Assembly: GCA_965649765.1 (NCBI GenBank)
Contig: OZ287748.1
Location: forward strand, 29,512,001 to 29,576,000
Direction: 5' to 3'
Origin: Bispira polyomma
Taxonomy: Eukaryota
DNA length: 64,000 bases
Under the pieces are notes generated by a model, which was not told where the DNA came from, did no database searches, and was given only the letters and a program-made list of their open reading frames with translations. How positions within the stretch are numbered: position 1 is the first letter of the stretch; the number at the start of each line of letters is the position of its first letter. The position numbers and the translations under genes were made by a program. Positions 6,150 through 45,204 of this stretch are shown here, one piece after another.

Positions 6150-6600
6150 TGAAAAGCGAGTTGATACAAATAGGTTTCGCTGTTTTTAGAAAAGCCTGCA
6201 ATCTTTGTTTTTGTATGGATACTAGCAGGGGGACTATTCCATTTTAAAGGTGCTGCAACTTTAATCGATATTCAACCTGCTAGTTTATTTGGTAAAAAGT
6301 CACAGATGCAAAGACAATTTCCTCTGGTGAAATTGCTGTGAGAAAACATAGATGATAAGTAGGCTGGCTGATGCAGAGTCTTAAAAATGCATTTACTTTG
6401 AAGTTTATAAAGAACTCAATCAGTGGCCAGTGCAGTTCTTGAGATTGTTTTGAATTTTCTGCGGCTTGTTTATTTGTCCCAGTCCGATACCATACAGTTG
6501 TAAATTGCAGTAGTGGACTTGCTACAAGGGCATTTGACACTGCAACGAATCCTACAAAAGTCACGAGTGTTATAATAGCAGGATTGACATATGTTTGAAA
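6150..6600 (-). mobile_element. L2/CR1-group LINE 3' fragment
   Basis: ELHWPL...INFK resembles the LHWLP...RI.FK tail of L2-type ORF2. A related fragment lies at ~12780-13010. Confidence 0.6.
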
Positions 6601-7515
6601 CTGTTTCTTATCAAATGTTCCTCATAAAACCCAAGTAGGTAAACAAAATGAACATAAACATTCAACATATCTTATAAGAGAACAAGAACAAAAGATAACC
6701 GGGGATGAAGATATTAACATGGACTGTAATTATTCTGAGTAAAATAGACACGTAAATTAACAGATTAACTTTACCTCTAAATTCTGGTTTAGCACAATCG
6801 CAAAACCCCCATCATTAACCCTGATATATTTAGGTCACAAACCTTCATGGGAAACAAATGGTTGACAATGGTGATTTAAGGGGAGACAAATATTTGAACC
6901 CTGAAATATTTGTTAAAGTGTTACCATTTTTGTTTCTGACATTTTCATCCCTTGAGGCTCAGACTTACAAGTGTTAGGTCTTAGGGTGGGATAAATTGTC
7001 CTTACAGCGGTATTACTTTGACATGTGCAGATTATTGACATTTTAATGAATGAGCTAATCTTTATTTATAATGTAGTTAATAAATGTCGGATTAACTTTA
7101 TGTAATTTTAGTGTTGTTATCTAGTTTAAGTGGTATATTATTGTTATATATTGTTTTGATTTATATATTTTAATGCTAGTAAAATTGTAACAATACATTA
7201 AATTCTCCACATCTCCTCTCTATCTACATTAGTAACTACATTTAACTAAGGACGCCTTTATAACTTTGGTAACATTTTTATAATTGCTTGTGAGACTGGC
7301 AATATTCAACAGCCACACATTTTTATGTAAAGCTCTATAATTGCATGGTAGATTTTATAAACCCACAAGTGAGCAGCAAAATTAACACAGGAAAAATAGA
7401 TAAAGGTGAGATTTTTTGTTCTTAAAAAATCTGATGCCAATTATCACTTTTTAAAGTTAAAATTCCTGCTTGATATCAAATACATGTTATTTTGAAGAAA
7501 AACACCCCAAACAGA

Positions 7516-8824: not shown

Positions 8825-10575
8825 TGAAACTAGTTGCCGATACCTTGGGTCAAACCCAGTACTTTCAGATTACTAGAGCAACTCCCTAAGCACTAGGCCA
8901 TGGCGGACTACAAAGTTAGCAGAAGCCAGACCTTACTGAAACCATTGAGTCCAAACAGTTTTTGGTGTTTCTATAATCCAAATTTCCAACCATTCGGCTG
9001 AATACCTCAGTGTGTGTCCACTGAAACTTTCCTCCGCCACACCCAAGCCAAATTGTTAAAAAAACACCTTTTTTGTTTTCTACATTCATATTGTGAATGG
9101 TGGAAAGATATCATTCTAAATCCATGCACATAATGGCAGATGGGTTTGAAAAATATGCCATTCGTTACATGGCTCTTACTAAACTTACACTTGTTTTTGT
9201 TGTAGTGAGAACTTGGTATTGTTCTGATAGCGTTGTTTGTAGTCTGGCTTGGTTTTTTTATTGTTATACGGTGCATGAGAAGCTGGGACATATTAAACAT
9301 GATGCTGTGCATTTACACGACAGACCCATTCTATTTTTTATTAATGTCATATCGCACCATATATTTCCACTTGCTCCATTTAGCATAAGAACAAAGCTTG
9401 GCTGGCCTTTGCTTCCTATCAAGAAAAGTCATTGGCATCATCCATCAAAGATACAACCTAATCTAACATATATCCCCTAAGCTTCCCTAAATTTTGCTCT
9501 TTATGTATCATGCGGCAGAAGTCAGCCAGCCACCTACTGTGTTACGTTTAACCAGTTGTATTTTATACTTCCTTTCCCCAGCTAATACAAATTTATATGG
9601 CCAAATGACTCGCTGCTTAACATCAATATTACTCCATGTTGTGATCTAATTTGTTCACTACCTGTCTTCCCAATATCAAGTGGAGGGAGTGACACATTGT
9701 CATGTGCGGTGTCCATCGTAGTGTGAACACAGCCACTAGTTGACGAATTCTCACTATGTTATCTTTATGGGTTTTTAAAAATGTTTTACTTGCTAGTTTG
9801 GCTTTAGCTTTCTTAGAGTTTTTTTTTCTATTTTCAATGGCATCTAGCCTGTTACATGTGTTCAAGAAATTGTTTATTGAGATATGCTTGCGTATCAGCT
9901 ATACTAGTAGTAACAGTTTTCCAAAGGATATGATCCCACCAATGAAACTAATTGTTGGTACCTGGAGTTGAACCATGGACCTTCAGATTACCAGACAAAC
10001 TCCTTAAACACTAGGCCAACGGGACCACAAAGTTAGCAGTAGCCAGGACTAATCAGATACCTTGGTGTGCGTCCAGTGGAACTTTCTTCCGCCACACCCA
10101 AGCCTAATCGTTTAAAAAATTTTTTTAGCTTTGTTCCTACATTCATTTTCTGGATGGTGGAAAGATATATTTCTAAATCCATGCACATAGTTGCAAATGT
10201 GTTTGAAAAATATGCCATCCGTTACATGGCTCTTACTAAACTTCCACTTGTTTTATTTGTAGTGAGAACATGCTATTGTTCTGGTAACCTTGCTTGTAGT
10301 CTGGCTTGGTTTTTTATTGTTATACGCTGCATGAGAAGTTGGGACATATTAAACCATGACGTCGTGCATTTGCATGACAGACCCGTTCTATTTTGTCTAT
10401 CAATGTCTAATCTAATCTAATCTAGTCGTACTTTTATAGCGCTTAATCTTTGTACAACAAATTCTAAGGCGCAACAAACCCAAAACGTTAATCGCAAATC
10501 AAAAATAGTGGTCATATTCCCACCATGTATTTACCCTTGCTCCATTAGGCATAAGAACACAGCTTGCCTGGCCAA
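8825..10575. repeat. Degenerate direct duplication, ~8825-9420 vs ~9945-10575
   Basis: Shared blocks such as aactttcYtccgccacacccaagcc and gaaaaatatgccatYcgttacatggctcttactaaactt. This explains the similar ORFs at 9097 and 10067. Confidence 0.88.
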
Positions 10576-10907
10576 GGTACCCATTTATACAACTGGGTAA
10601 AGAGGGACAACTTTGTGTAAAACACCTTTGTGTAAAGCACCTTGTCCAAAGGTACAATCTCCAAGCCTGAAGCGAGGATTGAACCTAGGCTTTTAAAATC
10701 GCAAATCAAAAATAGTGGTCATATTCCCACCATGTATTTACCCTTGCTCCATTAGGCATAAGAACACAGCTTGCCTGGCCAAGGTACCCATTTATACAAC
10801 TGGGTAAAGAGGGACAACTTTGTGTAAAACACCTTTGTGTAAAGCACCTTGTCCAAAGGTACAATCTCCAAGCCTGAAGCGAGGATTGAACCTAGGCTTT
10901 TAAAATC
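10490..10907. repeat. Perfect 207-bp tandem duplication overlapping a SINE
   Basis: Units start at 10490 and 10697, with AATC microhomology at all three junctions. Confidence 0.92.
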
Positions 10908-14300: not shown

Positions 14301-16617
14301 AAGTCTCCATTTAAAGCTAAGAATGTAAGGAATGTCATTCTACAGTTTGGAGTTAGACCACTATTAATTTTGTTATATGTTATCTTACAATAGACTTTTG
14401 CGCTAGACTAAAGCCCAGCCAAGTTCTGGCCCTACAAATCAAATATCAAATCAAACATCGATCATAGCCTGACATTACAGTTCAACAGGTTTGAGCTGTT
14501 TTTTTAGATATCTTGAAAAATATAGATGATTTCCTGTCAAATTAAAGATGACTGAACACTACAGAAAGGTCTTTAAACAGTTAGCTTCTGAAGATTTATC
14601 TTGGTGAAATACCTTTCGGAATGCATTTGAAATTTTTAGTTATGGTCAAGTAGTGGTTGGGTGACTTTTTTTAGATGTTTCTGTAAATTTAGCTCTGTGG
14701 TAGTTGTGTGTTATAACTGGCTCTTTTGTATAGACTCTGGACACAAGGCCCAGAATGCTGTGCTTATCTCATCTCATCCCATCATATTATAATATCTTAA
14801 TATCTTTTTCTAGAGCATGTGCTGCTCCTTATGTACACAAGATTGGCATGCATGCCATGAGTCACACAGGGATTACAATCTCTGGAATTCTACAGGAAAC
14901 ACTGGTCACATGATTATAGAACATAAGTAAGATGCCAAATATGGAAATCACATGATCAGGGATTTAGTAAGTTAAGCAAAAGTTGATGCATTGATTGGTC
15001 ATGTGATCAGAGCATTGCCTAATATGGTATTGGGAAGAGTCATGTGACTTGCCATGTTTATAAATTGTTTCCTGTGAATCACACACTCCTGAACTGGAGT
15101 GAGAGGAAGCTGTAAATATTTTCAGGTAATGTGACCTCATTACAATGTTGGAAGCTCATTCTCATAGCATCTCAACATCTTTACAAAATTTTACACAAGC
15201 ACATTAGAATTGGAGCTGTGTTTGAAGGACAAGTAACATAAACATCACATTGATAAAATCATGTACTTGTAGACAAAAGAGAACATTTCACTAAAATATG
15301 TAAGCTTGCATTCACTTATAAAAGTGTCTAGCTGTTGTTGTAAACCTAGATTTATAGTTTTTTTAATTTTAAGTTTTAATTTAAGTAAACGTATATCAGG
15401 ATACAAAGTACTACAATTGGTTCAACATTAGGATAAATTGTACAATTACTGAAAAAATGAAACTTCTATTTTTTCTACCATTTCCTTCCCTAATAGTAGT
15501 CATTTCCCTTTAATATCTGTGAATATTCACCCAAGTTAGATTGTTTACTACTTCTATGAATTTTGGTTGCAAGCTTATCCATTATGTTCGTTTCTACCTT
15601 AAATGCTCTATAACCAGTAAGCCACAAATACTAAAATCATGTTAAACTAGAGCTTGGGTACACAACATCTGCTTTTAAAGTAAAGCTTGGATTTAGGTAT
15701 AGAAGGTGCATAATAATGGAACATCTAAGAACACTTTACCAGGATTAGTCCGCCTAGTTCTAGAAGCAGAAGTATAAAAAGATAGATCAGGACTAAAATA
15801 CACAAAAAGACACAAAATCCACAAAACCCACAAGCAGACAAAACGGAAATGATACTGAAGTTTTTAAAATATTTTTTTAATAACTTTACTACAATGGCAA
15901 GACAATTGCACCAAATACCAATCCCTGAAGAACACTAAAAATCAACCTGAATAAATCTGAAATAACTGAACCGTTTTTGTTACTGATTGAGACCTGTTTG
16001 ACAGGTAAGATATAAACCAAAACAGAGCCAACATAACCAAATCTAGTTGACCGCTAACTAAGGAGTATATTATGATCAATGGTATCAAAGCAGAGAGATC
16101 AAGGAGACAGAGAGGTATAAATTCAGTGGAGTGGTCACTGTTACATGTATATGCTGACTAAAAATACTCATCAAGGTCATCTGACACTGGCCTATAGTTT
16201 TTAAGATCATCTTTTGCTAAGGTGAACAATGGAGGAGAATCATCTATTATCATTTGGTTAATATATATATATATATTGATCTAGTCTTATATGACAATTA
16301 ATGTAGGTCAAATTTCCACCCCTCTAATGGTATTCATTTAGTTATATTTCCTCATAATCTCTAAATATGTTGTTATATTAACGTGAAAATTTAGTTTATC
16401 TCTAAATGTACAGAAGAATATAAGTTATATTTTTCCCAATTTTACAATGCATTGAGTATAATTATTTGATAAAATGTTAAAAGAAAGATTTCTGTCATTA
16501 ACTTTTTTACCTTCACATTTTATACTTTGTTAGATGACTTTAATTTCTAATTAACTTATAACAGTAAAAGTTATAGGCCTTGTGCTGCCTTTTAAATTAT
16601 CTTTATTATTATTGTAT

Positions 16618-19600
16618 GACTATTTACATATGGCCGATATATAGATCTATATAAAACTAGACATGCTTGTATCTGTCAAATGAGACTCATTACCCAGGAT
16701 TTGTTTGGTATGTAAAGCCATCTTCGAATAACCAATATATTTACATCTCTTATACAACATCACCCACAGGCAAACCTGTGTGAAAGAAGTAAAAAACAAA
16801 GACATATGATGTTTAAGGTATTGTCAATGAAGCTGTATTAAAAATAGATCTGACACTGCCTGAGCTCAACTTACATGTATTTGGAAAACGGGTGCTAGAG
16901 CATATGTTTTCTGTCAAAATGTTCTGGTCCTTCAAAAACAATCTAGTTAATGAGAAAAGAGCTTTGCTTGGTGTATGCAGATGACTGTAATAAATGTCAT
17001 GTTTTTTTTAGATATTTAGATCATAAGGGCATACAAAGTGACATTTAGCTGTAGTTGATTTGCAGGACAAACCATCCATGAGAGACAGTAACATATTTGT
17101 ATTCTCTTTTCTGTAAACGATTTATCTGATTCGATCTAGTTAGTTAGGGTTTAATGTCACTTTCAGCACGCTTCGTGTCATATGATGACATACCAGAGGA
17201 TATATTAGAACAGGGTAGGTGGTCAAGGTGTTTTACTCTGCAAACTAGCAGCCTTCAGCACGTTTACTGCCAACTTGCTCACATACACCCAGGGCTGTTT
17301 GTACACTTGACTGCAGAGGTACAGGGAAGAGCCTAAATGTTGTGTAGAAATATGTCCTAAGCTGACTTAATCTGATTTACAACCACCATCGATCAAATAA
17401 CTACTTATATGTGTTGGAGTTCAACCATCATGACTATTTCCCAAACTTTATTTTCTCATTTTTCCTGCACTTTGAATTCTTTGAACTATTTTTTTTATTT
17501 CGACATGATCTTCATTTTGTGACATTCTAAAGAAAATACAATATTTTTGTATTGATGACCTTATTAGTACTTGTTTGACAGTTTGTTGTGTTATTTTATT
17601 CTTTTCATACCTCATAAAGAAATAAGGTAGAAGGTTACAAAGTACATTAAGCACATCTGTTTTAGCAGTTGAAACAAAGACTATTTCGATTTCAACAGCT
17701 TTTACTATTGTCAGGTTATTTGTGTGAATCGACAGTGTTGCCGATGAGGGATACTGTTTTATGTATTGTTTTGTTGTCTATGTATTCTAATTAGTACTCA
17801 ATATAACTATATCAGGTGTTAACTTCTAAAATAACAGATTAAAATTACTCCCCAAACAAATACATTTAGACATGTAAATACCTGCACAATCCCCTGTTAG
17901 AAAGGCAATCCTGGTTCTATTATCAAGCATTACATCTACAATTCAAAATAACTGTAACCAGCAAAGAAACAAATGATGCTGGTGTTGTGTAGGGATGGTT
18001 TTTGGACTATATATGTTACAAGCCTATCATAGTTTCATTCAATTTTTATGCAAATTAAGATAAGCATGAACTATTAGTGCTTCATTTCAAAAGGTGGGTA
18101 TTCAATATAAGATGATACTGCACATGTTACAATCTTATTGAGATATCTCATGAACAGAGCCCAGGATAATGACATGTCAAAGTGAAAATAATTACAGTAA
18201 ATATCCTGACACAACAAAAAATTATGTGTATCTGCCATATGCTTGATTTTGGTCCATATAATAAAGTAAATATATCTTGTGTAAGGGTAAGTCAACTTGT
18301 CAAAATGCAAATAATAAAAAGTATGTTATCTGTCGATACTTTAGCTCTGATGTTTATTCTGAGGTTGACTGTTTGGTATTAGGTTAATTCCATTAATGTA
18401 TCAAGAATATTTTTACTTTATGTATTGGATCTGACCCCTGTATATTTACAATAGTCTGTATTTGCATTTCACTTTCATTTTCAAAGTTATCTAGAACTTG
18501 TTTAGATCCTCACACATATTTTATTTTACTATCTAAATTTTATTTCGGTTAAATAAATAGCTTAACTTATAACATACAAAATATGAGGGTAATTTTTTCA
18601 TTGTTGTCTTATAATTGTATTTTGCATTCTCTAATGAAAGCTTGCTTCAAGTAATAACTACAACACGACACTCAGTTGCAATCAATATTTCTGGATAACT
18701 ATTTACCTGAATAGCTTCTTAATGTCTGCTTCTATTCTAATGTTTTCTTATAGATTGTATACAGATGATCAAACAATACATTTTACATGTAGCTTATAAA
18801 GGATGAGGCATTTACTTTCATATGTCAGCTTATTGTGCTTGTATAATGCTATCTGTACAATAAACAATGGTGCTATGACAGGAGAAAGCCATTTGATGCA
18901 TGCCATAAAATCATGAAACAATGTATGCTCATTAAGTGAAGTTAAAATATGGGACTGTATACAATTTTGAAATCTTACTGTTGTTGTTCTTATTGTTACT
19001 GATTCCAAAAGAACTTGTCGGAATCAATTATTTTTTATGTTGTTTTAGTAAAACATAGAAGACATTAGCAACAGCACTTTGCAAGAAAACCAAGTGTAGA
19101 AAAATCAATAATAAACGCATTGTTAACAACAAAAAGAATAAAGTGTTTTTTAATATAATAAAAAAAAAATGATTTATACAGGAAACATTGATGGTTTGTA
19201 TTTTAGCATATTACTCCAATGCAATTTACAGTATGTGCATGTATTTAACAAGCATTTCACTGCTGTAGGAATGTAAATTTAAATTTATTGGGGTTTTGTG
19301 TCACTTTTAACAATTTTGGTCATATTAGGAGGGCCAGATTTATTGGTAGAGGAAATCCAGTACTAGAAACCACAGACCCAAGGCAAGTATCTGGCAAAAT
19401 TTCCTATATGAAGGAGGCAGTGCATAAGTGACATGATGGCTATCTATATTTATCATCACACAAGTTAATTCTATTGCTTATTTTATTTAAATTCTTGCCT
19501 CAAGCAATATTATTGGCTGAAACTCTGGATTCAAGGAAACTGATTGGCTGGGCCTAATAATCTTTGTGTCCCACACTAATGTATTTCAATCCTATAGGAT

Positions 19601-20628
19601 AGTATCAAGTCATACAACGTCATACTGGTCGTCATCAGAAGGCAATGGTGTTTTCATGTCTTGTCCAAAAGGATGTTATTGCTAAATGACACTACTGTGG
19701 CATTATCAGAGGTTGAACCGGGACACTCTGGTCACCAGACAAATTCCCTAAACCACTAGGCTAGGACAGGCAACAGTTATCTGTTATTTTATGTATGACA
19801 TTTTTATTGGAGTTGTCAACACCCTCGCATCATCAAAACAAGATTTCAGGTGCAAAGTTTACACCATAGCGAAGTCATAAATAGGGGTATGGTGGGCAAG
19901 ACAAAATTAATTGTGGCATGTAATTTTGAACAGATGAGTCCAAATTTGACAGAAATAGTATGTGCTAGGGTTTACATCAACAAAAGATTTGGTCCATCAT
20001 TTGGGCGCTGCCACAGTAAAAGCATTAGGTTTTGATATTCCAAAAATATACAGTCTTCTTTTACCCTCCTAATAATATAAGTGATAGGGAGCCGAATAAG
20101 AAGGCTGTTGTTAGAATAATTGCCTTTTCATTGATGTCTTGTGTGGGCTTCGTGAGGAGTCTGTAACAGATAGCTCAGGATAATCATACAGCATATCATT
20201 GTGTTGTATTGTTGGCCTCCAATAATACATATTTAGAAAGAAAAATTACTTCTTTGACTTGAATTAAAAATTCTGTGAAACTTTTTTGACCGGAGGTGCG
20301 CCTTGTCCTTCTTGACTCGGCTCCCTCAGACAAGCACAGTAAGACATGGATTTGACTAAAAAACTTGTTTATTCCCCTATGAGATTCAAAGGCAACATGA
20401 AGTGACAATGGCCATTGTAACACCCCAGCAGCTGTAAGTTATAACACCAAACTCCTAACACGAAACATCTGCAGCATCACATGCAAACTGTAAACATGCA
20501 TCCACTGCATGCAAAACCCACTACAACGTCCTCACGTTCCAACAACAAACATCTCCAGTGGAAGTATTTGTCAAAAAACAATGACAAAAGTAAAAGACCG
20601 CCGTTTACTATGGAAGTATGTTGCTTTG
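16618..20628 (+). repeat. Local duplication, copy 1
   Basis: 16734-18575 matches 21574-23533, 20218-20628 matches 28746-29165, and 16618-16735 matches 21229-21346 in inverted orientation. Confidence 0.92.
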
Positions 20629-23600
20629 AACTATTACAAGCTGGTAAGTAAACCTGTTGTGCTCTATATTACATGGCTTTGGATATGAGCTGTCTTTTCT
20701 ATATATGGCTTATTTTAATTACCTCTTGTAGTTGGCTCAATGAAGCTTTTGTTTCAAATTCTGTCTTTCATTCTACCTATGATTAAGGTTTGGCCACCTA
20801 CCATCTATTTCAAAAAATTACATTGAAATAAAAAGCGTATAGAACTTTTGGTGGTGACATTTTACTATAAGTGAACAACATCACTTTAAATACTATGTAA
20901 ACAATATTGTTTATATGCAGCTTTCTGTTGGACAATTATGTAATATTTCTATCAGAATTATATTTTTCTGCTGGTAAAATGCATTACTGAAAGAACCAAA
21001 GATGTTAAATGATTTAGCCATAAATAATACAAAGATATGTAGTTCAACTGCTAACATTACTTTTAGTAAATATTTACTAGTATATTTACTAGTTTATTTA
21101 GTTATAAATATTACAAATTACTTTTATTTTTTTTTACTTCAAGTAAGCAACATTACTTTAAATACTATGTAAACAATAATGCTGATACAAAGCTTTATGT
21201 TGGACCTTTTTGTAATATTTCTATCAGAATTGGTTATTCTAAGATGGTTTTACATACCAAACAAATCCTGGGTAATGAGACTTATCTGACAGATACAAGC
21301 ATGTCTGGTTTTGTATAGATCTATATATCCTCCATATGTAAATAGTGATACAATAGTAAATATTTTACTAATAGTAACTTTAGAAATCAAACTAGTTTGG
21401 CAATTGTATATTAATTTGTAATATTTATTACTCAATAAACTAGTAAATTTACTAGTAAATATTTAACTACAAGTAACTTTGGCAGTTCAACTACATCTTT
21501 TTGAAGTATTTATAACTACATCATTTAACATCTTTGGTTCTTTCAGAAATGCATTTTACCAGAAGAAAAACATAATATATTTACATCTCTTATACAACAT
21601 AACCCATAGGCAAACCTGTGTGAAAGAAGTAGAAAAAACAAAGACCTATGATGCTTCAGGTATTGTCAATAAAGCTGTGTTAAAAATAGATCTGACACTT
21701 CCCGAGCTCAACTTACATGTATTTTGAAAACGGGTGCTAGAGCACATGTTTTCTGTCAAAATGTTCTTGTCCTTCAAGAACAATCAGTTTTTTTAGATAT
21801 TTAGATCATAAGGGTATACAAAGTGGCATTTAGCTGTAGTTGATTTGCAGGACAAACCGTCTATGAGAGACAGTAACATATTTGTATCCACTTTTCTTTA
21901 ACCGATTTATCTGATTCGTTCTAGTTAGTTAGGCTTTAATGTCACTTTCAGCACGCTTTGTGTCATATGATGACATACTAGGGGATATATTAGAACAGGG
22001 TAGGTGGTCAAGGTGTTTTACTCTGCAAACTAGCAGCAAGATTACTGCCAACTTTCTCATATACACCCCAGTGGGCTGTTTGCACCCTTGACTGCATAGG
22101 TTGGAGGTAGGTCTCACCACAGTAGCACTGAGGACCCAATTTATGAGATTAGAAAAACCCAACATATTAATGGATTTTTATGTCTTCCATTGACACTCAG
22201 TGTACAGATTCTTGTAAATGAGGACACAGTGTCAGGTCTTTATTAGGTTAGGAGTCCAAGAAACACAAAAAGTACTTTCGGTTAGCATTCATTTGAAAGA
22301 TTTTTATTTTGATAATTTTTTTTATAGAGAGATTAAATAAATTGCATCATTGTGTCAATCCAGGTGGAGCCTAAATGTTGTCCTAAGTTGACTTAATCTG
22401 ATTTACAACCACCATCCATCAAATACTGCTATTAACTAATTATATGTGTTGGAGTTTAATTATCATGACTAATTCCCAAATTTTATTTTCCCATTTTTCC
22501 TGCACTTTGAATTCTTACTATTTGCTTACTTGGACATGATCTTCATTTTGTGACATTCTTAAAAAAAATACAATACTTTTGTATTAATGACCTTATCAGT
22601 ACTTGTTTGACAATTTGTTTTTTCTGTTTTCTTTTCATACATCATAAAGAAATAAGGTAGAAGGTTACAAAGTACATTAAGCACATCTGTTTTACCAGTT
22701 AAAACAAAGACTATTTTGGTTTTAACAGCTTTTACCATTGTGAGGTTATTTGTGTGAATCAACAGTGCTGCTGATGAGGGATACTGTTTTATGTATTGTT
22801 TTGTTGTCTATGTATTCTAATATTCAATTAATACACAATATAATAATATCAGGTGTTAACTTCCAAAATAACTGATTAAAATCACTCCCCAAACAAATAC
22901 ATTTAAACATGTAAATACCTGCACAATCTTCTGTTATAATTAGAAAGGCAACCCTGGTTCTATTATGAAGCATTACATCTACAATTCAAATATAATGATA
23001 ACCAGGACACAAACGCATGTAGGGATGGTTATTGGACTATATCTGTTACAAGCCTATCATAGTTCCATTTCATGTTTATGCAAATTAGGATAACAAAAAA
23101 CTACTAGTTCTTCATTTTAAAAGGCGGGTTTTCAATATAAGTTGATAAAGCACATACTGCAATCTTGTTGAAGCATCTCATGAACAGTGCCCAGGAAGAA
23201 GATATGTTAAAGTAAAAATAGTTACAGTAAATATGCTGACACAACAAAACCTGATGTGTATCCCTCTTCCCCATGCTTAGTTTTGGTCCATACAATAAAG
23301 TTAATATATATATAAGGGTAAGTCAACTTGCCAAAATGAAAATGTTAAAAAGATATGTTCTCTGTCAATACTTCAGCTCTAATGTTTATTCTGAGATTAA
23401 CTGTTTGGTATTAGGTTAATTCACTTCATGTATTAAAAATATTTTTACTTTATGTATTGGATCTGACCTCAAACATATATTTTATACTATCTAAATTTCA
23501 TTTAGGTTAAGTAAATAGCTTAACTTATAACATTGGTAGGCAGCGCCCAGGTGCGGGCGATTTCAGTTCACAGGGTCCCAGTCTGAAAAAGCTAATTGAC

Positions 23601-23781
23601 CTTGTTGCGGTTTACTATAAAATACGGAAAATTTCAAATTCTCCCGCCTTTCTTATTTTCATGTACTAGGAACAACTTCGAAACAATAGGCTTGGCGGTT
23701 GACGGTTTAGATTTGAATTTGTTGTTTGTGCACTTGGATAGTTTAGTTATTTTAGTGTTTTAATTTCAAATTTTAACTATT

Positions 23782-24781
23782 ATGTTCACAATGCCAAGTA
23801 TTAAAGATTTTAGTTGTTTCAAGTGTGGTCGAAAACATGAAAGCCCAGTGGGTAGAAAATGTGCTTATTTTGTGGTGCTGAGGAATCCATGGCTGTTGCC
23901 GGCTCCAGTGATGCTTCTACCTCCTCTTCAGTTCAGGGCAATCCTATTTCTGGACAAATTCTGACACAATTGCAATCCATGGCTGAAATGATGGAGAGGA
24001 TGGACCAACGAGTACAGCTCACGGAGGCGGCGATAGCGGGAGACCTCACCAAAAATCAGTAGTAGCTCTCTTTCTGTCAATTCTATAGTCGAACCAAGTA
24101 TTAAAGGTACTTCCAGTAATAGTTTTATTCCTACTGTTGAATTTCTAAAGAAAAACTCGGCCATTCAGACACAAGTAGAATAGAGATTAGTTGAATTAAA
24201 AGCTTTAAACGAGAATCCGACCCAAGGTAAGCTTAAGCTTAAATCCCAACGAGAGGGGGGGGGGTACTGAAGTTATGGTTAAAAAATTAGTCGAATGGCC
24301 ACAAAATCATGTACTTTCTGGGAGTCTGAAACTTGTCCAAGTTATGACGACTTAACTCTTAATCAGTGGGTCTGTGGATTCACTAGAATAATTCAAGATG
24401 ATATTGGAATACATGGCTAATTTGATTGAATACTCCCAGGATTTTTCCTGGGAGTCAGCCAAAGTGTGTCATGCTGTCATTCTGTCCACGATGGAGGTGG
24501 ACAAGTTAAAGTGGACAGAGGTCGATAAGATAGATCGTCTAAGAAGGGCTCATGCCCAAAGGCATATTTCTAATAATACCAGCCAGGGAAACAGTAAAAC
24601 TGGTACTAAGACAACTGTCAGTGGTAAGCAAAATTCGGCAAACTGTAAATACTTCCAAGAAGGTACATGCAAGCACCAAAATAACTATAAAACTGGAAAT
24701 ACCTACTTCAAACATGTGTGTGAGGCGTGTGGAGGTAGCCACAAGAACTCGGCTTGCCATAAGAAGGGTTAAAAAAACTAA
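23782..24781 (+). pseudogene. gag-like ORF1 of element 1 (frameshifts and stops)
   Basis: N-terminal CxxC...H...C (CFKCGRKHESPVGRKC), a helical middle part, WPQNHV...DFSWESAK, and a C-terminal Cys/His finger CKYFQEGTC...HVCEACGGSH...C that matches the gag end of element 2. Confidence 0.75.
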
Positions 24782-24805
24782 AGGGCCACTGCAGCGATGC
24801 AGTGG
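24772..24805 (+). promoter_or_regulatory. Putative -1 ribosomal frameshift signal, element 1
   Basis: A_AAA_AAC in the gag frame, 7-nt spacer, CCACTGC-agcgat-GCAGTGG hairpin. The following ORF (24802) is in the -1 frame. Confidence 0.78.
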
Positions 24806-27254
24806 GCGAAAAAATTATAAAGCGAATTCTTAGACGCACTGTATATAGTAAAGATTTTCAATCATATCACTTGTTTGACAAGTCGGTGATTAAAAAGATG
24901 TGTACATATAATAGAGGTATAACAAGCCAGTGTAGTTACAGCGAAGTCGTGGTTAAACCGCGTAGTAGCAGTAAGTATATGAAAAGTAATGTATTACAAA
25001 GTGTACATAAAAATACCAGTACTAATCCTAACTTTGTAAAACAAAACTTGGGGTGCAAAGCTCTCCCAAGACATGTAAATAAAGCAACAATGGGGGCGAC
25101 CAGAGCTAGGCAAACACACAAGGTGAGAGTTAAAAAACCACAACCTATTGTCAAAACTCGGGTTCCTCTCTTTGTGAATAAAAGAGTGTAATTGATTTCA
25201 ACAAACAAAACAATCAGTGGCAGGCTGACACGGCTAATAGATTTAGTGTGCTTGGCCAGCTTGATACCTCCATTGTTGAGGGTGATAGGGACAACAATGA
25301 AAGTGAGTGTTTGCTGGTGCCTATTGTTACCAACACACTAGCCAGTGGGGGAAATGTTAGTACCAAGAATAGGTGCAGTATTTCTTGCAAGGGTAATTCC
25401 CCTACACAGGGCAGTATAATTGAACGAAAGGAAATGCATTCTATTAAAATAAGGTCTTCCTAGTGACAAGTATGCATTTGATTTAAAACAAAAGCAGAAC
25501 AAGCGCGAATTGTCAGAAAAGGCAAAATTAAATGAAACCCACATCAAATGGCGTGAACAAAACAAGGTCCACTATGGCTTTATCCCTTTGTCTACATTGG
25601 GTACAAAAATATGGGACAATAGTTCAGAAAATTTGGGTGTTGATATTCTAGAAATGCATAATTTGTTGCGACAAGATGGTAGACAAAATTTCAATTACCA
25701 GTAAATTCCCAGCTAAATCTTGATAGGTGGAAATAGTATTTGGGTGAATATTAGGATTGGCAGTTACCTCTGCCAATTAAATATGGCTTTCCTCTTGACG
25801 TGTATTAGCCAATCAGCGTGGCCCAATCACAAATCCGCTTTGGAATTCCCTGAACACGTCGATTTCTATTTGAAGGAAGAATGTGATTATGGTGCAATGC
25901 TCGGGCCATTTATGAACCCTCCAATCAAAAATCTGCATTTCTTACCAATGATGACACGCACAAAAACAACCTCGAGTAATAGGTGGGTCATCGTTGATCT
26001 GAACTGGCCGAAGGGCCAATCAGTTAACGCTGGTGCTTCACCCACCACATACTTGGGTACAGATTTTATATTATCTTATCATTCTATCGACAATCTAACA
26101 AATGAGGTACTAAAACTGGGGAGAGGTTGTAAAATATTCAAAATTGACGTTAGTGGGGCATTTAGACATGTGCCCATTGATCTTGGGGAGATTGATTTAT
26201 TAGGCCTGAAGTGGGGTTTTTATTTTATAGATAAGTCACTCCCATTCGGTTATCAGAATGGGCGTACTATCTGTCAGAGAATTTCAGATGCAGTTAGATA
26301 CATAATGTACTCCGAAGGTCATAATGTCCACAATTATTTGGATGATTTGTTATGCATCTCACTCCTGAGTAAAATCTACACAACTTACCAACGCTTGCAG
26401 GTACTGCTATCTGAATTAGGACTTACAGTCAGCAAGAAAAAATTAGTGCCTCCTAATACTGTGGTTATATGTCTGGGTATTAGTATCGATACTGTGAAAT
26501 TTACTACTTTATTCCTATTGAAAAATTGCAGGAAATTAAAAATATATGTGTCAGATGGAGAAGTAAAAAGTCTTGTACCAAGAAAGAACTTCAGTTTTTC
26601 CTAGGGTCTCTATTATATATGGCAAAATGTATTAGATATGCTAGAGTATATCTTAATTGAATGTTAGCCCTGTTGAGAGATAATCACAGCAACAATAGAT
26701 TTCCTTTTACTGAAGAATTTACCAGAGACCTTAGGTGGTTTATTACGTTTATAAATCAATTTAATGGAGATTCTTTCTTCAATCACAAACCTGTCAATGC
26801 AAAAATTGAGTTAGATGCCTGTTTGACAGGCATGGGGGGCATATACAAAAATCAAGTATACAAATTACCAGTCCCTACAAATATGTCTCATTATAATATT
26901 GCGGCACTGGAGATGCTAAATATATTGGTAGCCTTAAAATTGTGGGCTGAGGCCTGGCGTGGATTCCGAGTATTGTTCAAATGCGACAACCAAGCTGTGG
27001 TCAGTGTCCTGTAAACGGGGCGAACAAAAGATCCAATATTGGCTACTTATACTCGCAATATATACATGTGGGCCAGTCGTTTCGATATTGACATCAAAGT
27101 TGTACATATACTAGGCGTTGATAACAGTATAGCCGACTTATTGTCTAGGTGGCACAAAACCAAGAATAATGAAGAAATTTTAGCTACTTTGGCAGGTCCT
27201 ATAGTTTGGTTAGATACTGACCACACTTTATTGCAGGTGGATAATAATATATAG
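24778..27254 (+). pseudogene. pol (N-terminal extension, RT, RNase H) of element 1, disrupted
   Basis: RT motifs KIDVSGAFRHVP, LPFG, NYLDD, CLGI. RNase H motifs LDACLTGMGG, IAALEMLNI, CDNQAVV, NSIADLLSR. Split over several ORF-track fragments. Confidence 0.92.
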
Positions 27255-27284
27255 CATAAATACCTCCATTTTTATGTATTTCAG

Positions 27285-28300
27285 CAACAAATCCAATGGA
27301 TAGGATGCTCACAAAGATGGCTTGCCAGAGATTGCATTCAGCTTTCGCTGCTTCCACAGCTAAAGCCTATGAGAGCATGTACAGACTATTTCTGGCTTTT
27401 GGGGTATTCATGAAATGGACCTCCACCCAGGTGAACGTTTTCATCCTTCTTGCATATTTAGAATTCTTAAATTTTAATGCTGTATCACCCTCTCAGATTA
27501 CAAATCACTTGTCGACCATCAAAGCTAAATGCATCCTGTTCCATTTGAATGTTGATGTTTTTCTGATCCAAGAATTTCATATTTTACCAGAGCCTTGTTA
27601 GTAAATAGACCTTTGCAAGTGAAATTGAAATGTATTTTTGACATACCTCTGCTTAGTGTTGTAGTACAGAAGTGTGACTATATGTATATGGGTCATGTAT
27701 TCAAGGCTGTTTACCTTACCAGTTTCTTCAGTTTTTTGCGACTCTCAAATTTATCTCCTCATTCAGTAAAGGATTTTTCACCTCTCAAGCATCTCGCCAG
27801 CGGCGATATCATGTTCAAGCCTGGTTACGTAGTCCTACTGGTAAAATGGTCAAAAACAATGCAAACTAATGATGCTGTGCGACTTCTCACCTTACCAGCT
27901 TTGTCCAATTCTATTTTATATCCAGTCACAGCCTTGAAGAACTTGTTGGCCATTACTCCTGCTGGTTCAAATCTTCTTTTGTTTCAGTTTAAGCTTTCGG
28001 CTTCCTGGATCCCTCTTACTGACACCCTGGTCAGGCGCCATCTCAAAATTGTCTTACAGATGCTGGGCTTACAAAATTCAAACCTCACCTTCCATGCTTT
28101 TCGACGTTCAGGTGCCACCTTTGCTTTTAATAATAATGTCCGAATCAAAGATATTCAGAGGCATGGCACCTGGACGTCGGAGTGTGTGGAGATATGTTAC
28201 AGACTCAGCCAATGCTAGTTCTCAGGTAGCCGACGCTTTCTGTGCAGCCCTACGTACTGCTTCATGTTCTAGGTTTGGTGGTCTGCCATATCTTATGTGA
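27285..28300 (+). pseudogene. Tyrosine recombinase of element 1, frameshifted
   Basis: FFSFLRLSN (R), KWSKT (K), HAFRRSGAT (HxxR), HGTW and, after a frameshift, VWRY (catalytic Y). Confidence 0.92.
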
Positions 28301-29441
28301 CAGTACATGTTTATATTAATGTATTTAAATAGAAACTTACAGTAACCATATTACTGTACTGGGCATAAGGTCACCTTACATAACACAGTACATAATATAC
28401 TTTTTTATCTAAAATTTGATTCAATAATCTCAAATTTCACTTACATTTAAGTCTACCTTACTAGTTCACATGAGGTTGACTTACTGCAACCACAAACTCA
28501 ACATGTGTCTTTCTTGGCTTGACCTGACCTTAAATTTCAGTTAAGTCACTGGTAGACTTAACTTAAGCCTGACACAAAATTTCGGATCAAGCTATGCCTA
28601 ACTCAATTATCGATTTAAAAGTGTATTTCTGGTCGCCTTATTCTCAATTTAAGGCAACCTTAGTAATTTCAAAATCCTTGTAGTTAAGGTGACCTTATGC
28701 CCTAACTTTATAACTGTATATATACTAAGTAGTAGCCTAACACATTCCAATAATACATAATAAAAAAAAGTACTTCTTTGACTTGAATTAAAAAGTCTGT
28801 GAGACTTATGTGACTGGAGGTGTGCCTTGTCCTTGACTCGGCTCCCAGGAGAAACAGGGGAGAAAGACAAGCACAGTAAGACATGGATTTTACTAAAAAA
28901 ACTTGTTTATTCCCCTATGAGATTCACAGGCAACATAAAGTGACAATGGCCATTGTAACATACCAGCAGCTGTAAGTTATAACACCAAACTTCTAACAGG
29001 AACCATCTGCAGCATCACATGCAAACTGTAAACATGCATCCACTGTATGCAAAACCCACTACAACTTTCTCACATTCCAACAACAAACATCTCGAGTGGA
29101 AGTATGTGACCAAAACAATGACAAAAGTAAAGGGTTGCCGTTCACAATAGAAGTACGTTGCTTTGTGAAAAATCTCTTAATTTTGTATATGAACAATTCC
29201 AAAATTTTAAATAAAATATAAACAATGCATGGTCACACTTATAAAACGTAGTGAATTAGTGAATTCACAGTTGTACTCATAGTGTTGTTTTAAACTCAAT
29301 CTGAAGAGCAAATGCACTTTATTTTTTTTAATAGCACATCTAAAACTTAAACTAGCTGTGCACTCGGGTATATAGGATTTGGTGGTAATTTGGACTAGTT
29401 TCTTACAACATAGTGTAATTCTCTTTATTTTTATCACCTTA

Positions 29442-38435: not shown

Positions 38436-39326
38436 ACAAATTCAAAGTCCCTAGGGCTCTTTGTGTAATTTGGGGATAGAGGACCACATGTATTAGGCTG
38501 TTATTGCTAGGAACTTCAGACTGAAATCGAACCTATGTGCTCTGTGTGTATTACCAACTAGACCACGGCTTAAGAATATTATCCAACAATATACGGCCTA
38601 AACCACTGCCACTTACTCCAAAATCAGTTAAAGGCAAATACTATTTGCAAATGTTTAGATTTGAGCTCTTGTTGTACTCACTGCAGTAGAATATATCCTA
38701 CGGCGAGAAAAAGGGACTAAGTGTAATTGATAGGCTCCTCATTCCTATTCCATGCTTTGGCTTTTATGGTTTATCAATCTGTAATAGTGTAATAGTAGTA
38801 GCAGTAATAATGACTGGATGTAATCACAGACCAATTCCTTTGGGGCTGAGTGGTTTGTGACATGCAACTTTCTACAAAGGACACGGCCATTTTCTTGCCT
38901 CTTAAATCCAGTTAGGTCTCCTTCTCTTCTAATAAACAACCTACCCCTTTCAAAGAATGACTTATAGCTATAGCAAGACAGGAGTTTGCTATTACTAGCT
39001 TTTATTTTGAATGAATTTTACTACCGACTGTTTCAAACAACTCTTCCACCTGGGCATGGTGTAACTTTGTTGCTTTATTCCATTAATGTTACCTCTATAA
39101 CTAAACTAATCAACAAACCCAACACATATCTAAACTCAGGTGTACTTGAAATGAAACATTTCAGCAGTTGCACTGCTAGGAAAAGGAATAGCAAAATATG
39201 TAATTTATGCCAATAACATTATTATTATTATTGTCTCCCATGTCCTGGTGGATAGAGAGTTAGCCTGGTGATCTAAAGGTCCCTGATTTGACTCCCAGCA
39301 AAGTCATATACTGGATTACTGGGGAA

Positions 39327-40100
39327 AACATCTCTGGGCATGCATTGCCTACTAATAGGACCAATGCTATGTTATATAACATCTCTGGGCATGTGTTGCC
39401 TACTGGTGAGGACCAATGCTATGTTATGTAACATCTCTGGGCATGCATTGCCTACTAATGAGGACCAATGCTGTGTTGTATAACATCTCTGGGCATGCAT
39501 TGTCTACTGATGAGGACCAATGCTATGTTATATAACATCTCTGGGCATGCATTGCCTGCTAATAGGACCAATGGTATGTTATATAACATCTCTAGGCATG
39601 TGTTGCCTACTGGTGAGGACCAATGCTATGTTATGTAACATCTCTGGGCATGCATTGCCTACTAATGAGGACCAATGCTATGTTGTATAACATTTCTGGG
39701 CGTGCATTGCCTACTGATGAGGACCAATGCTATGTTATATAACATCTCTGGGCATGCATTGCCTACTAATGAGGACCAATGCCATGTTATATAACATCTC
39801 TGGGCATGCATTGCCTACTAATGAGGACCAATGCTATGTTGTATAACATCTCTGGGCATGCATTGCCTACTAATGAGGACCAATGCTATGTTATATAACA
39901 TCTCTGGGCATGCATTGCCTACTAATGAGGACCAATGCTATGTTGCATAACATCTCTGGGCATGCATTGTCTACTGATGAGGACCAATGCTATGTTATAT
40001 AACATCTCTGGGCTTGAATTGCCTATGATGAGGACCAATGCTATGTTATATAACATCTCTGTGCATGCATGCCTACTGATAAGAACTAATGCTATGTTGT
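39327..40100. repeat. Minisatellite, 51-52-bp unit, ~15 copies
   Basis: Unit aacatctctgggcatgcattgcctactaatgaggaccaatgctatgttatat. Confidence 0.97.
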
Positions 40101-40239
40101 AGGATTTGCAAGGTTATGTTATCGATTTATATCCCTTTACGGAAATAAAGCATCATAGGAGGACGCTTCAAATAATTTGTGTGGTGTGGAGATTTGCAAA
40201 GTTGAAGATGAAAAAGAATCTTGAATACATACTATTTAC

Positions 40240-40451
40240 AAGCTAAAAATAATCACAAAAATGGACATAGTAAAGGCATGCCCTGCAGATATTTTCAAAA
40301 GGGCACTTGCCCACAGAAAAACGACCACGAAACCAATGGCAAACTCTATACACATGTATGTGCAGCTTGCTCTGCGATAGGCAAAAATTTTCCCCACCCT
40401 GAAAAAGATTGTAGGAAAAGCAAGGCTAATGCAGTTCCAAAAAACGACTAG
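40240..40451 (+). pseudogene. 3' remnant of gag, element 2
   Basis: CRYFQKGTCPQKNDHETNGKLYTHVCAAC...HPEKDC aligns to CKYFQEGTCKHQNNYKTGNTYFKHVCEAC of element 1. Confidence 0.8.
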
Positions 40452-40472
40452 GGCACTGCAAAACAGCAGTGC
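40439..40472 (+). promoter_or_regulatory. Putative -1 ribosomal frameshift signal, element 2
   Basis: A_AAA_AAC in the gag frame, 7-nt spacer, GCACTGC-aaaaca-GCAGTGC hairpin. The pol ORF (40469) is in the -1 frame and open from the slip site. Confidence 0.8.
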
Positions 40473-42807
40473 AAGTAAAAAACTCGGCATTAACACCGGG
40501 TACAAATAGTCACCCATGTAGCAGAGCAGGCTTCAATTCGTCTAGAATCATTGTAAATTCTAAGGTTGCAAACGTGAGTAGTGACAACTGGAGATCTGAC
40601 TGGGCGAGATTCAGTAATAAAACATATGCACAGGTCGTGAAACAAAGGCTCTCAAGCCCTAAACAGGCTAGTAACAACTCAAAACACAGAGAAGTAGTTC
40701 AAAATGAAAAAAGGATCCCCAGTTGTCACACCAAAAATGTTGTAAATAAAAAATGTGTAAATACAAAAGTTCACCATGGTGTAACAAAGCAATGTACCCA
40801 ACTAAAAGACGTGAAAAAGGTGAGGATTTGTAGGTCACCTGGGCGTGAAAGCCCAATTAAGCCTAACAATAACATCATTGTGCAAAATCGTTTTGACCCA
40901 CTTCTCACACTTTGTCATACATCACCCGTTGTAGGTGGGAAAAGTGACACATTACTTGCTAACAAGGTCAGTGGACCACAAAAGGTAAACATAGATACTG
41001 TTACAGTACACAAAGACAAGTATAACTTGCAACTTCAAGTCAAAAACAAACATAAAGAGAAAGTAGCACAGGCTAAAAATAAGGATACATTCAAAAAGTG
41101 GATTAGCCAGACACGAGGTAAGTTGGGCTTTATTCCTCTAGGTCCTCTAAAAAATCCACCCGATGACAATCCAAGTGAAAATACTTTCTCTGAGCTTGAA
41201 CTGCATTCTAAGGTAAAAAGTAGCAAAAATTACAATTTCATTGGAGAGCAATTAGTAGTGCAGTCACAACTCAAACACGAGCGTTGGAAAGAACTACTAG
41301 TGGATTACTGGGATACCCAGCTTCCTCATCTTATTCGCTACGGGTTTCCCTTGGACTTTAATCGGCACTCAGAATTAAGTTATAAAGAAGAAAACCACCA
41401 TTCGGCGCGTGAGTACACCGATGACGTCATGGCCTATCTAGAAGAAGAAAAACAGCATGTGGCGATTCTGTGTCCGTTTCATAAGCCACCCATACAAGGC
41501 ATGCATATTTCCCCATTCATGACAAGAGAAAAACCAGGTGCACCCCATAGAAGGGTCATCATAGACTTAAGTTTCCCGCCGGGGCAATCAGTTAATTCTG
41601 CAATACGTCAAAATTGATACTTAGGTACAAACTTTCTTCTGACACTGCCCACCATTGATGAAGTAACAAACAAAATTGTAAAATTAGGCAAAAATTCACT
41701 CATTTATAAACTGGACATAAGTCGCGCCTTCAGGCGCGTAAAACTTGATCCAGCCGATTACGACTTGCTAGGCCTAAAACTAGAAAACTATTACGTTGAT
41801 ATGTGCCTGCCATTCGGCTATAGGCACAGAAGCGCCATATTTCAGCGCCTAAGTGACGCCATGCGTTACGTCATGCGCGGTAGAGGCTATGACGTCATCA
41901 ATTATATAGATGACGTCATAGGATTTGGAAACGGCCTGTACGTCCATGACGCTTACGACGCCCTCTATAGGCTAGTGCAAGAATTAGGTTTCGCTATTAG
42001 CAGTAAGAAATTAGTACCTCCAAGTACTAGGGTAACGTGTCTAGGCGTCTTGATTGACACAACTATGTTTACAGTAGAGGTGCCACCGGAAAAACTTGCG
42101 CAAACAATTCAACTCTGTAACAGCTGGGTAGGTAAAAAAGAATGCTCGAAACGAGAACTCCAATCACTGCTGGGCTCATTGCTTTATATTTCAAAATGTG
42201 TTCATATTGCCAGAATTTTCTTAAATAGGATGCTAGACAAACTGCGCAATGCTCCAGATGCAAAACGCATAGGCCTGGAGCTTCCATTCTTCCAGGATCT
42301 TAATTGGTTCACTAAATTTACACAAAAATTTAATGGCAAAGCCTTCTTTGACCACAGCCCTGTCACAGATGAAATTGAGCTTGATGCCTGTCTAACAGGC
42401 TTAGGAGGTAGATGTAATAATATAGTTTATACAAAAATCCTCCCCCTTAATTATCTGAGAATGAACATTGCACATTTGGAAATGCTTAATATTTTAGGAA
42501 AAACACTTGGAAAGGTAAGAAACTGGTAGTCCACTGTGACAACCAGGCAGTGGTCACCATCTTGAACTCTGGCAAAACCAAGGACTTAACTCTTGCAGCC
42601 ATTGCAAGGAACATTTTTATGGAAATTGCTGAGTCAGATATAAATTTAAGGCCAGTACACATTTTAGGTAAACTGAATGTCGCAGCCGACCTCCTATCTA
42701 GATGGCACAAAACTCAAGAACCAGACATTAAACTACAACAAATAATACCTGAACCACACTGGGTAAAGGTTCAGGATGAATTACTAACTATTGACAGGGG
42801 TATATAA
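40445..42807 (+). pseudogene. pol (RT and RNase H) of element 2
   Basis: HISPFMTREK...RVIIDLS, LPFG, NYIDD, LDACLTGLGG, HCDNQAVV, NVAADLLSR. There is an in-frame stop at 41615-41617 and a deletion/frameshift near 42495. Confidence 0.93.
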
Positions 42808-42817
42808 TTTATTTCAG

Positions 42818-43789
42818 ATCTCTCTCCGCTGGTGTTGCAGCTAGCTGGTCAGGCTGCCCATACAGCTAGGCAGGCCCTTAGGCCTGTCACTCAGTAAGCC
42901 TATCAAACCATGTTCAAGGTTTTCATAGTTTATACTATATTTGTAAGTGCCTATATTACACACATTTCCCCCATTTTACTACTTTCGTTTCTACAGGTAC
43001 TGGTAGCCAGTAAAGTGTCCCAGCCCTCTATTGCCAACTATCTGGCAGCAATAAAAGCTAAACTCAGCCTATATGGTATAACTGTGGCTGCATTTGCAGA
43101 CCCTCGTATCAAGTATTTTCAGAAGGCACTTATCTTACAAAAACCTTTTAGGGCCAGAATTAATAAGGCTTACAGAAGTGGTAAAAATCTGTGATACAAT
43201 GTTCATGGGGCAAATCTTCAAGGCTGCTTACTTATTAGCCTTCTTCTCCTTTTTAAGAATTTCGAACTTAGTTCCCCACACACTCAGTACGTTTAATCCA
43301 TTAGAACAGCTTGCTAGGGCGGATGTGCTTTTTGCTCCCCCTGGACTCCAAGTAATAATAAAATGGTCCAAAACCCTTCAGGATAGAAATTCAATAAAAA
43401 TCATCAAGGTTCCAAGTATCAGGAACTCTGTACTCTGCCCTGTGGCAGCAATTAGAAACATTCTAGCTCTTTCACCAGCTAATAAAAACTCACCTCTATT
43501 CCAGTTCAAGACAGCTTCAGGCTGGGTTCCTCTCACAGATTCAAAAATAAGACATAACTTGAAGCAAATTCTAGTGAGATTGAATTTGACAGACTCTCCC
43601 ATAACATTTCACGATTTCAGACGTTCAGGGGCCACACTGGCCTTTAATAACCATGTTCCTTTACAAGAAATTCAAAGCCATGGCACATGGACTTCAGAAT
43701 GCGTTTGGAAATATATTACGAAGGATCATGAAGCTTCAGACCAAGTGGCCATAGCCTTTCAAATCCTACTTTCCAACCCTACTCACTAA
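42818..43789 (+). pseudogene. Tyrosine recombinase of element 2
   Basis: FFSFLRISN, KWSKT, HDFRRSGAT, HGTWTSECVWKY. There is a nonsense codon near 42895 and a frameshift near 43165. Confidence 0.93.
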
Positions 43790-43800
43790 CTTGGGTTTGG

Positions 43801-44204
43801 GTGCTTTTCTTAATCCATTTTATACTTTAAACTTGTTACTTATGTATCTCAGACTAAGGTCACCTACATCTTCAAACTTACACTTAAGTTAAAACTTAAA
43901 CCCATTAAGGTTACCCTAATTTAAACAACCATCTTAAGCTAAGATGGCCTCAAACTAAGCCAATCCGGCATCTTAAGGTAAGATGACCTTAATTTCAAAC
44001 TGTAAACTCAATTTGGGGTAACCTTAGTATCTTAACTTAAACTCAGTTTAAGGGTACACTTTCTGATCTCCTTAAACCCCTGGTGACCTTAGTCTTTCAG
44101 TATGTATATAGTGTAGTGTAACCAACTTAGAATAAAACTAATATTCCCAACGGCTATAGTTCTTACTGTGTTATCTCCAACGGTAAGGCCACAATAGGGC
44201 ACTG
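43801..44204 (+). repeat. Split direct repeat B1 of element 2
   Basis: Nearly identical to 45205-45607; fewer than 10 differences seen in ~400 bp. Confidence 0.93.
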
Positions 44205-45204
44205 TGCAAGGTAGCCCGAAGGGGCTAGTAGGGTCAGTGCTAGAAAGGATCTTTTTAAAAACTATTCTGGTCTGCATGACCTCAATGCCCATTGGCTCTC
44301 ATTAACCCAATTACACAGCTAATTCCCGCCAAATAGCCTAAGGGGTTCACTTTTACAATTGAAGTCAACAAGGCAACACGCCATTTTAAGATATCTTAAT
44401 TTTGTTTCCCACCCTCATCCCCTACTCACTCCTTTCAGTTGGCTATAGCGTCGTCTGGGAGCAAATTGCAGAAGGTGGGGTCCCTGTTCTCTCCCTTTAT
44501 GCCCTTAGGCGCAGAGGGGGGCAAAGGGGGTGCCGGGGTGAGGCTTCGACCTGTCAGCAACATGGCTCGACTGCAGTCTTGCACTCTGGTGCTTCCTTGG
44601 GGGCCCTCAGGGCTCCCACCTTCTTGTCTCCAATAATTTACTGGGAAACCAGTCCCCTAATCAGGGTCTCTTTTTATTATAGCCTGCTGGCCGGAGGAGA
44701 TACAACCTTATCACAAATTGTGTATCAAATAACATGTCTTTATTAATGTGTATCAAACTTTAACTTAATGTGTCAACTAATGTATATTAGAGGGAGTGAT
44801 AATATTGTCAATATGTACACAATATAAAACAAAACTTGTCAGTAATGTGTAACGATGGAATGTGTCAAGACATATTCAAGTGTAATTAAAATGTCAATGT
44901 CATAAATATAAATATGCATGTATTAACCACGAGTGTGTTAGTTTCAGATCACATGGAGCAAGTGATCAACATCCATGGCGTGCCGCGGCCAGCAATCAAA
45001 AAGCCTCTGGTCGGGCTGTGTCCAAGTCAAGCTCCAAGATATACTTAATGTATTATTGTACCTCGATTTCATTCGATTTGCAACATCGTGGTACATCTCT
45101 GTAGGTTTGACGGGACATTAATTTTAGATGTGCTGTTCTTTTAGTTTTTAGCTAGAACAGGATTGCTTGTTACTGCTTTTACAAATTTTTTTTACTCTTG
45201 TTAT

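Follow-up and report, generated by a model that had tools for sequence, protein, structure and literature searches.

A Ngaro-like retrotransposon in the window

The window, a 64,000-nucleotide stretch of the Bispira polyomma genome, contains at approximately 23536-28746 a decayed copy of a Ngaro-like tyrosine-recombinase (YR) retrotransposon. This copy, here called element 1, lies on the + strand, as do all of its features described below. Its 5' end is formed by an A1 terminal repeat (23536-23685) with an 89% match to the A1 of another genomic copy, L044, in which A1 recurs as A2 between the B1 and B2 repeats. The N-terminal part of gag (GagN, the predicted shared first coding exon, 23791-24226) comprises 145 codons plus one base, or 436 nt; an alternative ATG at 23782 would extend it to 445 nt (148 codons plus one base). 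GagN is made up, in order, of a Cys/His knuckle-like motif, a long helix, a linker and a conserved helical motif, and ends at a predicted phase-1 splice donor, AAG|GTAAGC (24224-24232), whose last exon base, 24226, falls in the Gly codon of the sequence TQ-G-K. The rest of gag (24227-24781) encodes a helical core and C-terminal Cys/His motifs and has at its end an A AAA AAC heptamer (24772-24778), a likely -1 frameshift site into pol. The pol frame (24763-27254) specifies reverse transcriptase (RT) as well as RNase H (RH), with no methyltransferase, and closes with a TAG at 27252-27254, 30 nt before the acceptor, TTTCAG, which together with its T-rich tract occupies 27265-27284 and provides a conserved YAG in phase 1 to the YR frame. 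The predicted GT-AG intron (24227-27284), 3058 nt long, takes in the core of gag and the whole of pol. It is followed by the YR exon (27285-28270, end approximate), with a SAM-like core-binding domain and a catalytic domain, and by a 3'-truncated B repeat (28276-28746) that matches positions 1-462 of L044's B1, which is ~550 nt long.

This copy is dead: GagN contains two frameshifts as well as stops, the remainder of gag and pol are also broken, and the YR is frameshifted. The GagN-YR fusion proposed below is accordingly a property of the family and not a product of the window copy. A2 and B2 are absent, leaving A1 and the truncated B. Element 1 sits in the second copy of a host segmental duplication (window 16600-20630 versus 21230-29165; ~5 kb, 82-92% identity), and the first copy contains ~1.6 kb (18576-20217) that is missing from the second, which suggests that a deletion removed the 3' end of the element together with flanking DNA. 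Elsewhere the window contains a 21-nt tandem array (49535-50307), a 50-nt array (57071-57284) and a perfect 207-nt duplication (10490-10903).

The 1.04 Gb genome yielded at least 440 candidate copies at first look, of which 40 were scored. Near-complete copies have the layout A1-gag-RT/RH-YR-B1-A2-spacer-B2. The order gag, RT/RNase H, YR was seen in tblastn maps of 80 loci, and split direct repeats (A1-ORFs-B1-A2-B2) were identified in L044, L050, L058 and L104. In L044, ~690 nt of unique sequence (6523-7209) separates A2 from B2. A Pfam scan of one near-complete pol returned RVT_1 and a weak RVT_3, with no methyltransferase, protease or DDE integrase, and this pol ends ~35 aa after the DxLSR motif of RH. 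PF00589 was detected in 13 of 14 intact YR relatives and SAM-like families in several; the R-K-H-R-W-Y columns of the recombinase are conserved.

Ngaro-like elements are a superfamily within the order DIRS. Parts of PMC3783388, PMC8547959 and PMC9210276 describe Ngaro-like elements as having the order gag, RT/RH, YR, split direct repeats and no methyltransferase. Our elements fit these descriptions in gene order, repeats and pol, in an assignment made from descriptions of the superfamily, the RT tree containing no named references. A DIRS-like identity would entail inverted terminal repeats with an internal complementary region and a methyltransferase, and we found direct repeats alone and no methyltransferase. 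PAT-like elements share the split direct repeat pattern with Ngaro, according to a passage in PMC6681497; the pattern is common to both, and PAT is also defined by an RT phylogeny close to DIRS-like elements. A YR start that overlaps the RT/RH end in the -1 frame, which is typical of Ngaro but not strictly defining, is absent here.

A predicted splice donor within gag is conserved between families

The sequence of the window at 24217-24235 is CCGACCCAAGGTAAGCTTA, with the exon ending at G24226 and the intron opening with GT at 24227-24228. A sequence-only reading of this DNA had proposed a strong phase-1 donor, CAAG|GTAAGC, at this position, and the site, CCCAAG|GTAAGC, is as described. The strength attributed to it needs qualification. 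The site is real and conserved, but the motif alone is within chance: the + strand of the window contains AAGGTAAG four times, and pol has two sites that equal the donor's 8/9 match to the textbook consensus. It is conservation across families that raises the donor above chance. The protein context had been read as ENPTQ G|K LKLKSQR, and the site lies there as claimed; the doubled LK, however, is a 6-bp duplication seen in 1 of 40 aligned copies, and relatives read GKLKSQR.

Among the 40 close copies the donor AG|GTAA is present in 35 and the acceptor YAG in 22 of 25. These copies are too alike for a test of codon constraint, for which we therefore used diverged families. Searches with PF00589, with the DNA of element 2 and with a Gag protein returned longer lists, out of which a further 80 loci were hand-picked to be diverse, giving 85 sequences, of which 79 had a mappable donor column and six were left out. 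They form 25 families at 80% nucleotide identity, with between-family RT/RH identities of 0.31-0.83, and cover all deep clades of a tree built from the families of this genome alone. The families share ancestry, so that 25 families are not 25 independent trials. Seven loci, making up two families, were re-anchored by up to five codons to the nearest upstream Gly; the result without them is 23/23.

The donor Gly codon does not vary freely. GGT is found in 76 of 79 loci and is the majority codon in each of the 25 families, compared with 154 of 464 cases at 21 other conserved Gly columns in the same families. It is the sole invariant column among 97 four-fold degenerate columns, the next scoring 0.75 and the median 0.43. 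The expectation that the Gly-Lys pair would invariably read GGT AAG thus held for its first half only, since the following codon is AAG in 10 families, AAA in eight, AAT in four, and AAC, ACG and ATG in one each. This codon nevertheless begins with A in 25/25 families, whether it encodes K, N, T or M, as would be expected of a donor more than of a protein constraint. The codon preceding the Gly ends with A in 24/25 families, the residues encoded being Q, S, T, K, P and L. Expressed as donor positions, A is found at -2 in 24 of 25 families, at +3 in all 25 and at +4 in 23, and the conserved bases are exactly -2A, -1G, +1G, +2T, +3A and +4A, with free flanks. Position +5 is occupied by G in only 12 of 25 families, which counts against the donor reading. 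The site is the best or tied-best donor-like sequence in 23 of 25 families, among the 64-127 GT sites of the 5' region.

The donor had been placed between an N-terminal Cys/His plus helical region and the gag core, and structure prediction agrees. In the structure that AlphaFold2 predicts for one Gag from a 16-sequence alignment (mean pLDDT 69, pTM 0.35) it falls in a low-confidence linker (residues 144-161, pLDDT<50) that follows helices 47-84 and 116-141 and precedes a confident helical core. In all 25 families the donor directly follows the helical motif that is best conserved in GagN, and the length of GagN ranges from ~130 to 260 aa. No clear match emerged when the Gag model was used in fold searches: the best E from Foldseek was 0.99 and the best Z from VIA 5.3, and most hits were generic long helices. 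A search of the ESM Atlas returned unnamed clusters alone.

A predicted, phase-matched acceptor precedes the recombinase

The acceptor of element 1, ATGTATTTCAG at 27282-27284, is followed by CAACAAATCCAATG, the first exon base being 27285. Joining 24226 to 27285, as the sequence-only reading had suggested, is indeed in frame: G24226 and the following CA form an Ala codon, after which TNPMDRML is read in the YR frame, both sites being in phase 1. The roughly 150-aa Gag N-terminus that had been predicted is borne out as 145 or 148 codons, depending on the choice of ATG.

A phase-1 YAG is present at the homologous place in 22/22 informative families, whereas phases 0 and 2 score one each; three of the 25 families (L118, L081 and L137) had no usable YR start and were left out. 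When the same 15-nt window is shifted upstream, phase 1 is found in 2-6 of 22 families, and when it is moved into conserved coding sequence the scores are 0-14, apart from a single score of 17 for phase 2. T occupies position -6 in 21 of 22 families and -5 in 20 of 22. Ten different dipeptides straddle the acceptor, so no protein motif explains the YAG. Among individual loci, two phase-2 calls (L123 and L091) come from copies with an indel just downstream, and L070 and L094 have a mutated AG. In other families the predicted intron mostly measures 2.8-3.2 kb.

In 20 of 22 families the RH stop precedes the acceptor by 6-38 nt; in one it could not be mapped, and in L131 RH continues into YR. Frame offsets of 0, +1 and +2 from RH to YR all occur. 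Upstream of YR, its frame contains a stop in every locus except L131 and L134, both of which run RH in frame into YR, and in eight families RH and YR share one frame with a single stop between them. Seven families have the first Met of the YR frame within 15 codons, ten have it at codon 30 and four at codons 78-217, with one family unscorable; in the window's family it is an ATG at 27297, three codons past the acceptor. The SAM-like domain is nonetheless N-terminal in YR, though the first Met is late in many families.

Of 24 scorable families, 15 carry the heptamer immediately ahead of the gag stop, and in the best-preserved copies the -1 frame behind it stays open for 612-865 codons. The heptamer is missing from the most diverged families.

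Element 2 and relatives beyond this genome

A second element in the window (element 2, 40200-45600) belongs to another family and is truncated at its 5' end, which adjoins a 52-nt tandem array (39305-40119); its B1 (43801-44204) and B2 (45205-45607) are 98% alike. It had been remarked that element 2 lacks the donor region, leaving the donor seen only once. The region is indeed missing in the window, but copies of the family (L090-L096) carry CAG|GTAATT at the same codon in six of seven cases and CAG|GTAACT in the seventh. The acceptor of element 2, TATTTCAG|ATC (42798-42817, + strand), has its AG at 42816-42817 and first exon base at 42818, is in phase 1, and is located 10 nt after the RH stop.

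A scan of metagenome contigs gave 15 loci, eight with a YR N-terminus and four with gag. Inspection by eye shows a phase-1 YAG with a pyrimidine tract ahead of all eight YR N-termini (L154 and L155 being almost the same), and, in loci in which RH was mappable, its stop lies 31-334 nt upstream. Of the gag loci, L151 has CAAG|GTAATT at the homologous codon. The more distant Gags of L153, L155 and L156 have no donor Gly at the homologous place; ~13 codons further on, at the motif FSSKGT, they have a phase-1 AAAG|GTACG (L153, 651-662; L155, ~2711-2722; L156, ~1454-1465), and this AAA GGT ACG is possibly a donor shifted ~13 codons into the Gag core. Among Gag homologs from other assemblies, the Gly is present in 87 of 98 that bear the motif, and in 86 of these 87 it is followed by a residue whose codon can begin with A (background 0.42). 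This protein-level pattern is a weak hint in favour of the donor, because K, R or N may be retained for protein reasons. Viral and prokaryote contigs scanned with YR contained no relative.

Searches for spliced or fused products

Six exon-end probes, each representing one family or close group, revealed no intron-less genomic copy; five were blank and had no positive control, and the sixth matched one point mutant and no spliced copy. The lack of an intron-less GagN-YR copy among these probes hints that the spliced RNA may not be packaged or copied, the signal needed being perhaps in the intron. No fused protein was found among 33 Gag matches, the best 150 of 472 GagN matches (E<=0.001) or the best 120 of 584 YR matches. 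The database proteins appear mostly to be unspliced ORF calls, and the homolog searches took in near lengths alone. Three runs of unrecorded kind from one study behave as genomic contigs and are uninformative on splicing; the 24226-27285 joint is absent among the joints listed (15 of 80).

Discussion

The sequence signals make it highly probable that the recombinase of these elements is produced from a spliced mRNA from which a ~3 kb intron has been removed, as a GagN-YR protein of ~475 aa. Unspliced RNA would yield Gag, and would also be the genome, with a likely -1 frameshift at A AAA AAC giving Gag-Pol. Splicing would instead join ~145 N-terminal residues of Gag to the whole recombinase, GagN supplying the start codon that is missing from many YR frames. 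The long helix and helical motif of GagN, which are common to Gag and Gag-Pol, would allow the YR to co-assemble with these proteins and so gain access to new cDNA. Whether GagN brings the YR into Gag particles in this way we regard as an even call. GagN is without the helical core and the C-terminal Cys/His motifs of Gag, and particle entry is therefore not assured.

If the splice is real, there is only slightly less than an even chance that GagN has no part in particle entry and serves instead as a start codon, a control on dose and perhaps an oligomerisation or nucleic-acid-binding tag. The same missing core and Cys/His motifs are compatible with such a role, as are the twofold range in GagN length and the apparent displacement of the donor in the distant lineage. 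Against it, any phase-1 donor nearer the ATG would be enough to provide a start, yet the donor is fixed after the most conserved helical motif in every family, and the P50 protein of MLV, itself a splice fusion of the Gag N-terminus to integrase, is packaged according to an account in PMC10496198.

Explanations that dispense with the GagN-YR splice fare less well. That the YR is instead made as Gag-Pol-YR, by frameshifting or stop read-through at the RT/RH end, with the splice-like motifs having another cause, agrees with a review statement on Ngaro quoted in PMC13003380, with the eight single-stop families and with the uninterrupted frames of L131 and L134. We consider it very improbable, however, as the ORFs are separate, with an intervening stop in the YR frame, all three frame offsets occur and the gap is 31-334 nt in the metagenome loci; the invariant GGT and phase-locked YAG would also be left unexplained. 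More generally, the RT/RH stops before YR, the three offsets and the four families without a Met for 78-217 codons argue against both frameshifting and separate initiation. The late Met in these four families likewise speaks against an acceptor joined to a non-coding 5' exon (from a 5' UTR donor, an internal promoter or a trans-spliced leader) with the YR using its own ATG. The early Met codons of the window's family and of seven families in all are what this arrangement would predict, and the 5' UTRs cannot be aligned between families. A non-coding first exon sets no phase, though, and phase 1 is seen in all 22 families; no better upstream donor exists in 24 of 25 families; and the gag donor would have no explanation. 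We rate this arrangement unlikely. The GGT constraint might, finally, reflect an RNA or DNA element (a packaging signal, a structure or a protein site) or a donor for a different acceptor. The constraint is, after all, read from sequence, and the phases would match by chance alone one time in three. But the constrained bases are precisely the donor positions between free flanks, and Pol already has a likely route via the heptamer. We view this explanation, in which the phases match fortuitously, as highly unlikely.

The preferred reading, splicing from within gag to the YR, bears on the expression of the YR and its delivery to cDNA in YR retrotransposons, for which the review literature merely assumes a frameshift. 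It specifies exact donor and acceptor sites, matched in phase and retained across deep splits between families, and predicts the real N-terminus of the YR enzyme for biochemistry. The retroelement would carry an intron across its pol gene while having its RNA copied in unspliced form, creating a control point that the host could regulate. More tentatively, and with the balance of probability somewhat against it, splicing from a gag-internal donor could be the ancestral and general route to the recombinase in animal Ngaro elements, the true enzyme being GagN-YR loaded into the particle by its Gag helices and the assumed frameshift being wrong for much of the superfamily. Were this so, the stand-alone YR ORF of current annotations would be a truncated protein.

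We found no report of spliced YR expression in the literature on Ngaro, DIRS and YR elements covered by our search, and an earlier mention elsewhere is possible. Poulter and Butler (2015), as quoted in PMC13003380, state that the Ngaro YR is probably made by -1 frameshifting, and a passage of PMC3783388 describes the YR of fungal Ngaro as in frame or frameshifted in all groups, a variation that splicing would explain. The elements described here have the gene order, split direct repeats and lack of a methyltransferase of Ngaro-like elements, but their YR does not overlap RT/RH, and a conserved phase-1 acceptor, with its partner donor in gag, stands ahead of it.

The expression of a downstream gene by removal of the genes upstream has precedents elsewhere. 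Foamy virus Pol and the Env of gypsy and retroviruses are made from spliced subgenomic RNAs whose donor is in the 5' leader, with no or few Gag codons retained. In the present elements the same device would retain ~145 Gag residues, and the gene expressed would be a recombinase. The nearest functional parallel is the SD' RNA of MLV, in which, as described in part of PMC10496198, an alternative donor within gag joins the Gag N-terminus in frame to the last 116 residues of integrase, the resulting P50 being found in virions. In the elements described here, too, a gag-internal donor would bring about fusion of the Gag N-terminus to the frame of an integration enzyme. The MLV SD' RNA is itself retrotransposed, in contrast to the elements studied here, for which we found no spliced genomic copy. 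P50 is, moreover, an accessory protein that carries the last part of a DDE integrase, whereas in these elements the whole recombinase would be fused to GagN and splicing is proposed as the main route to its expression.
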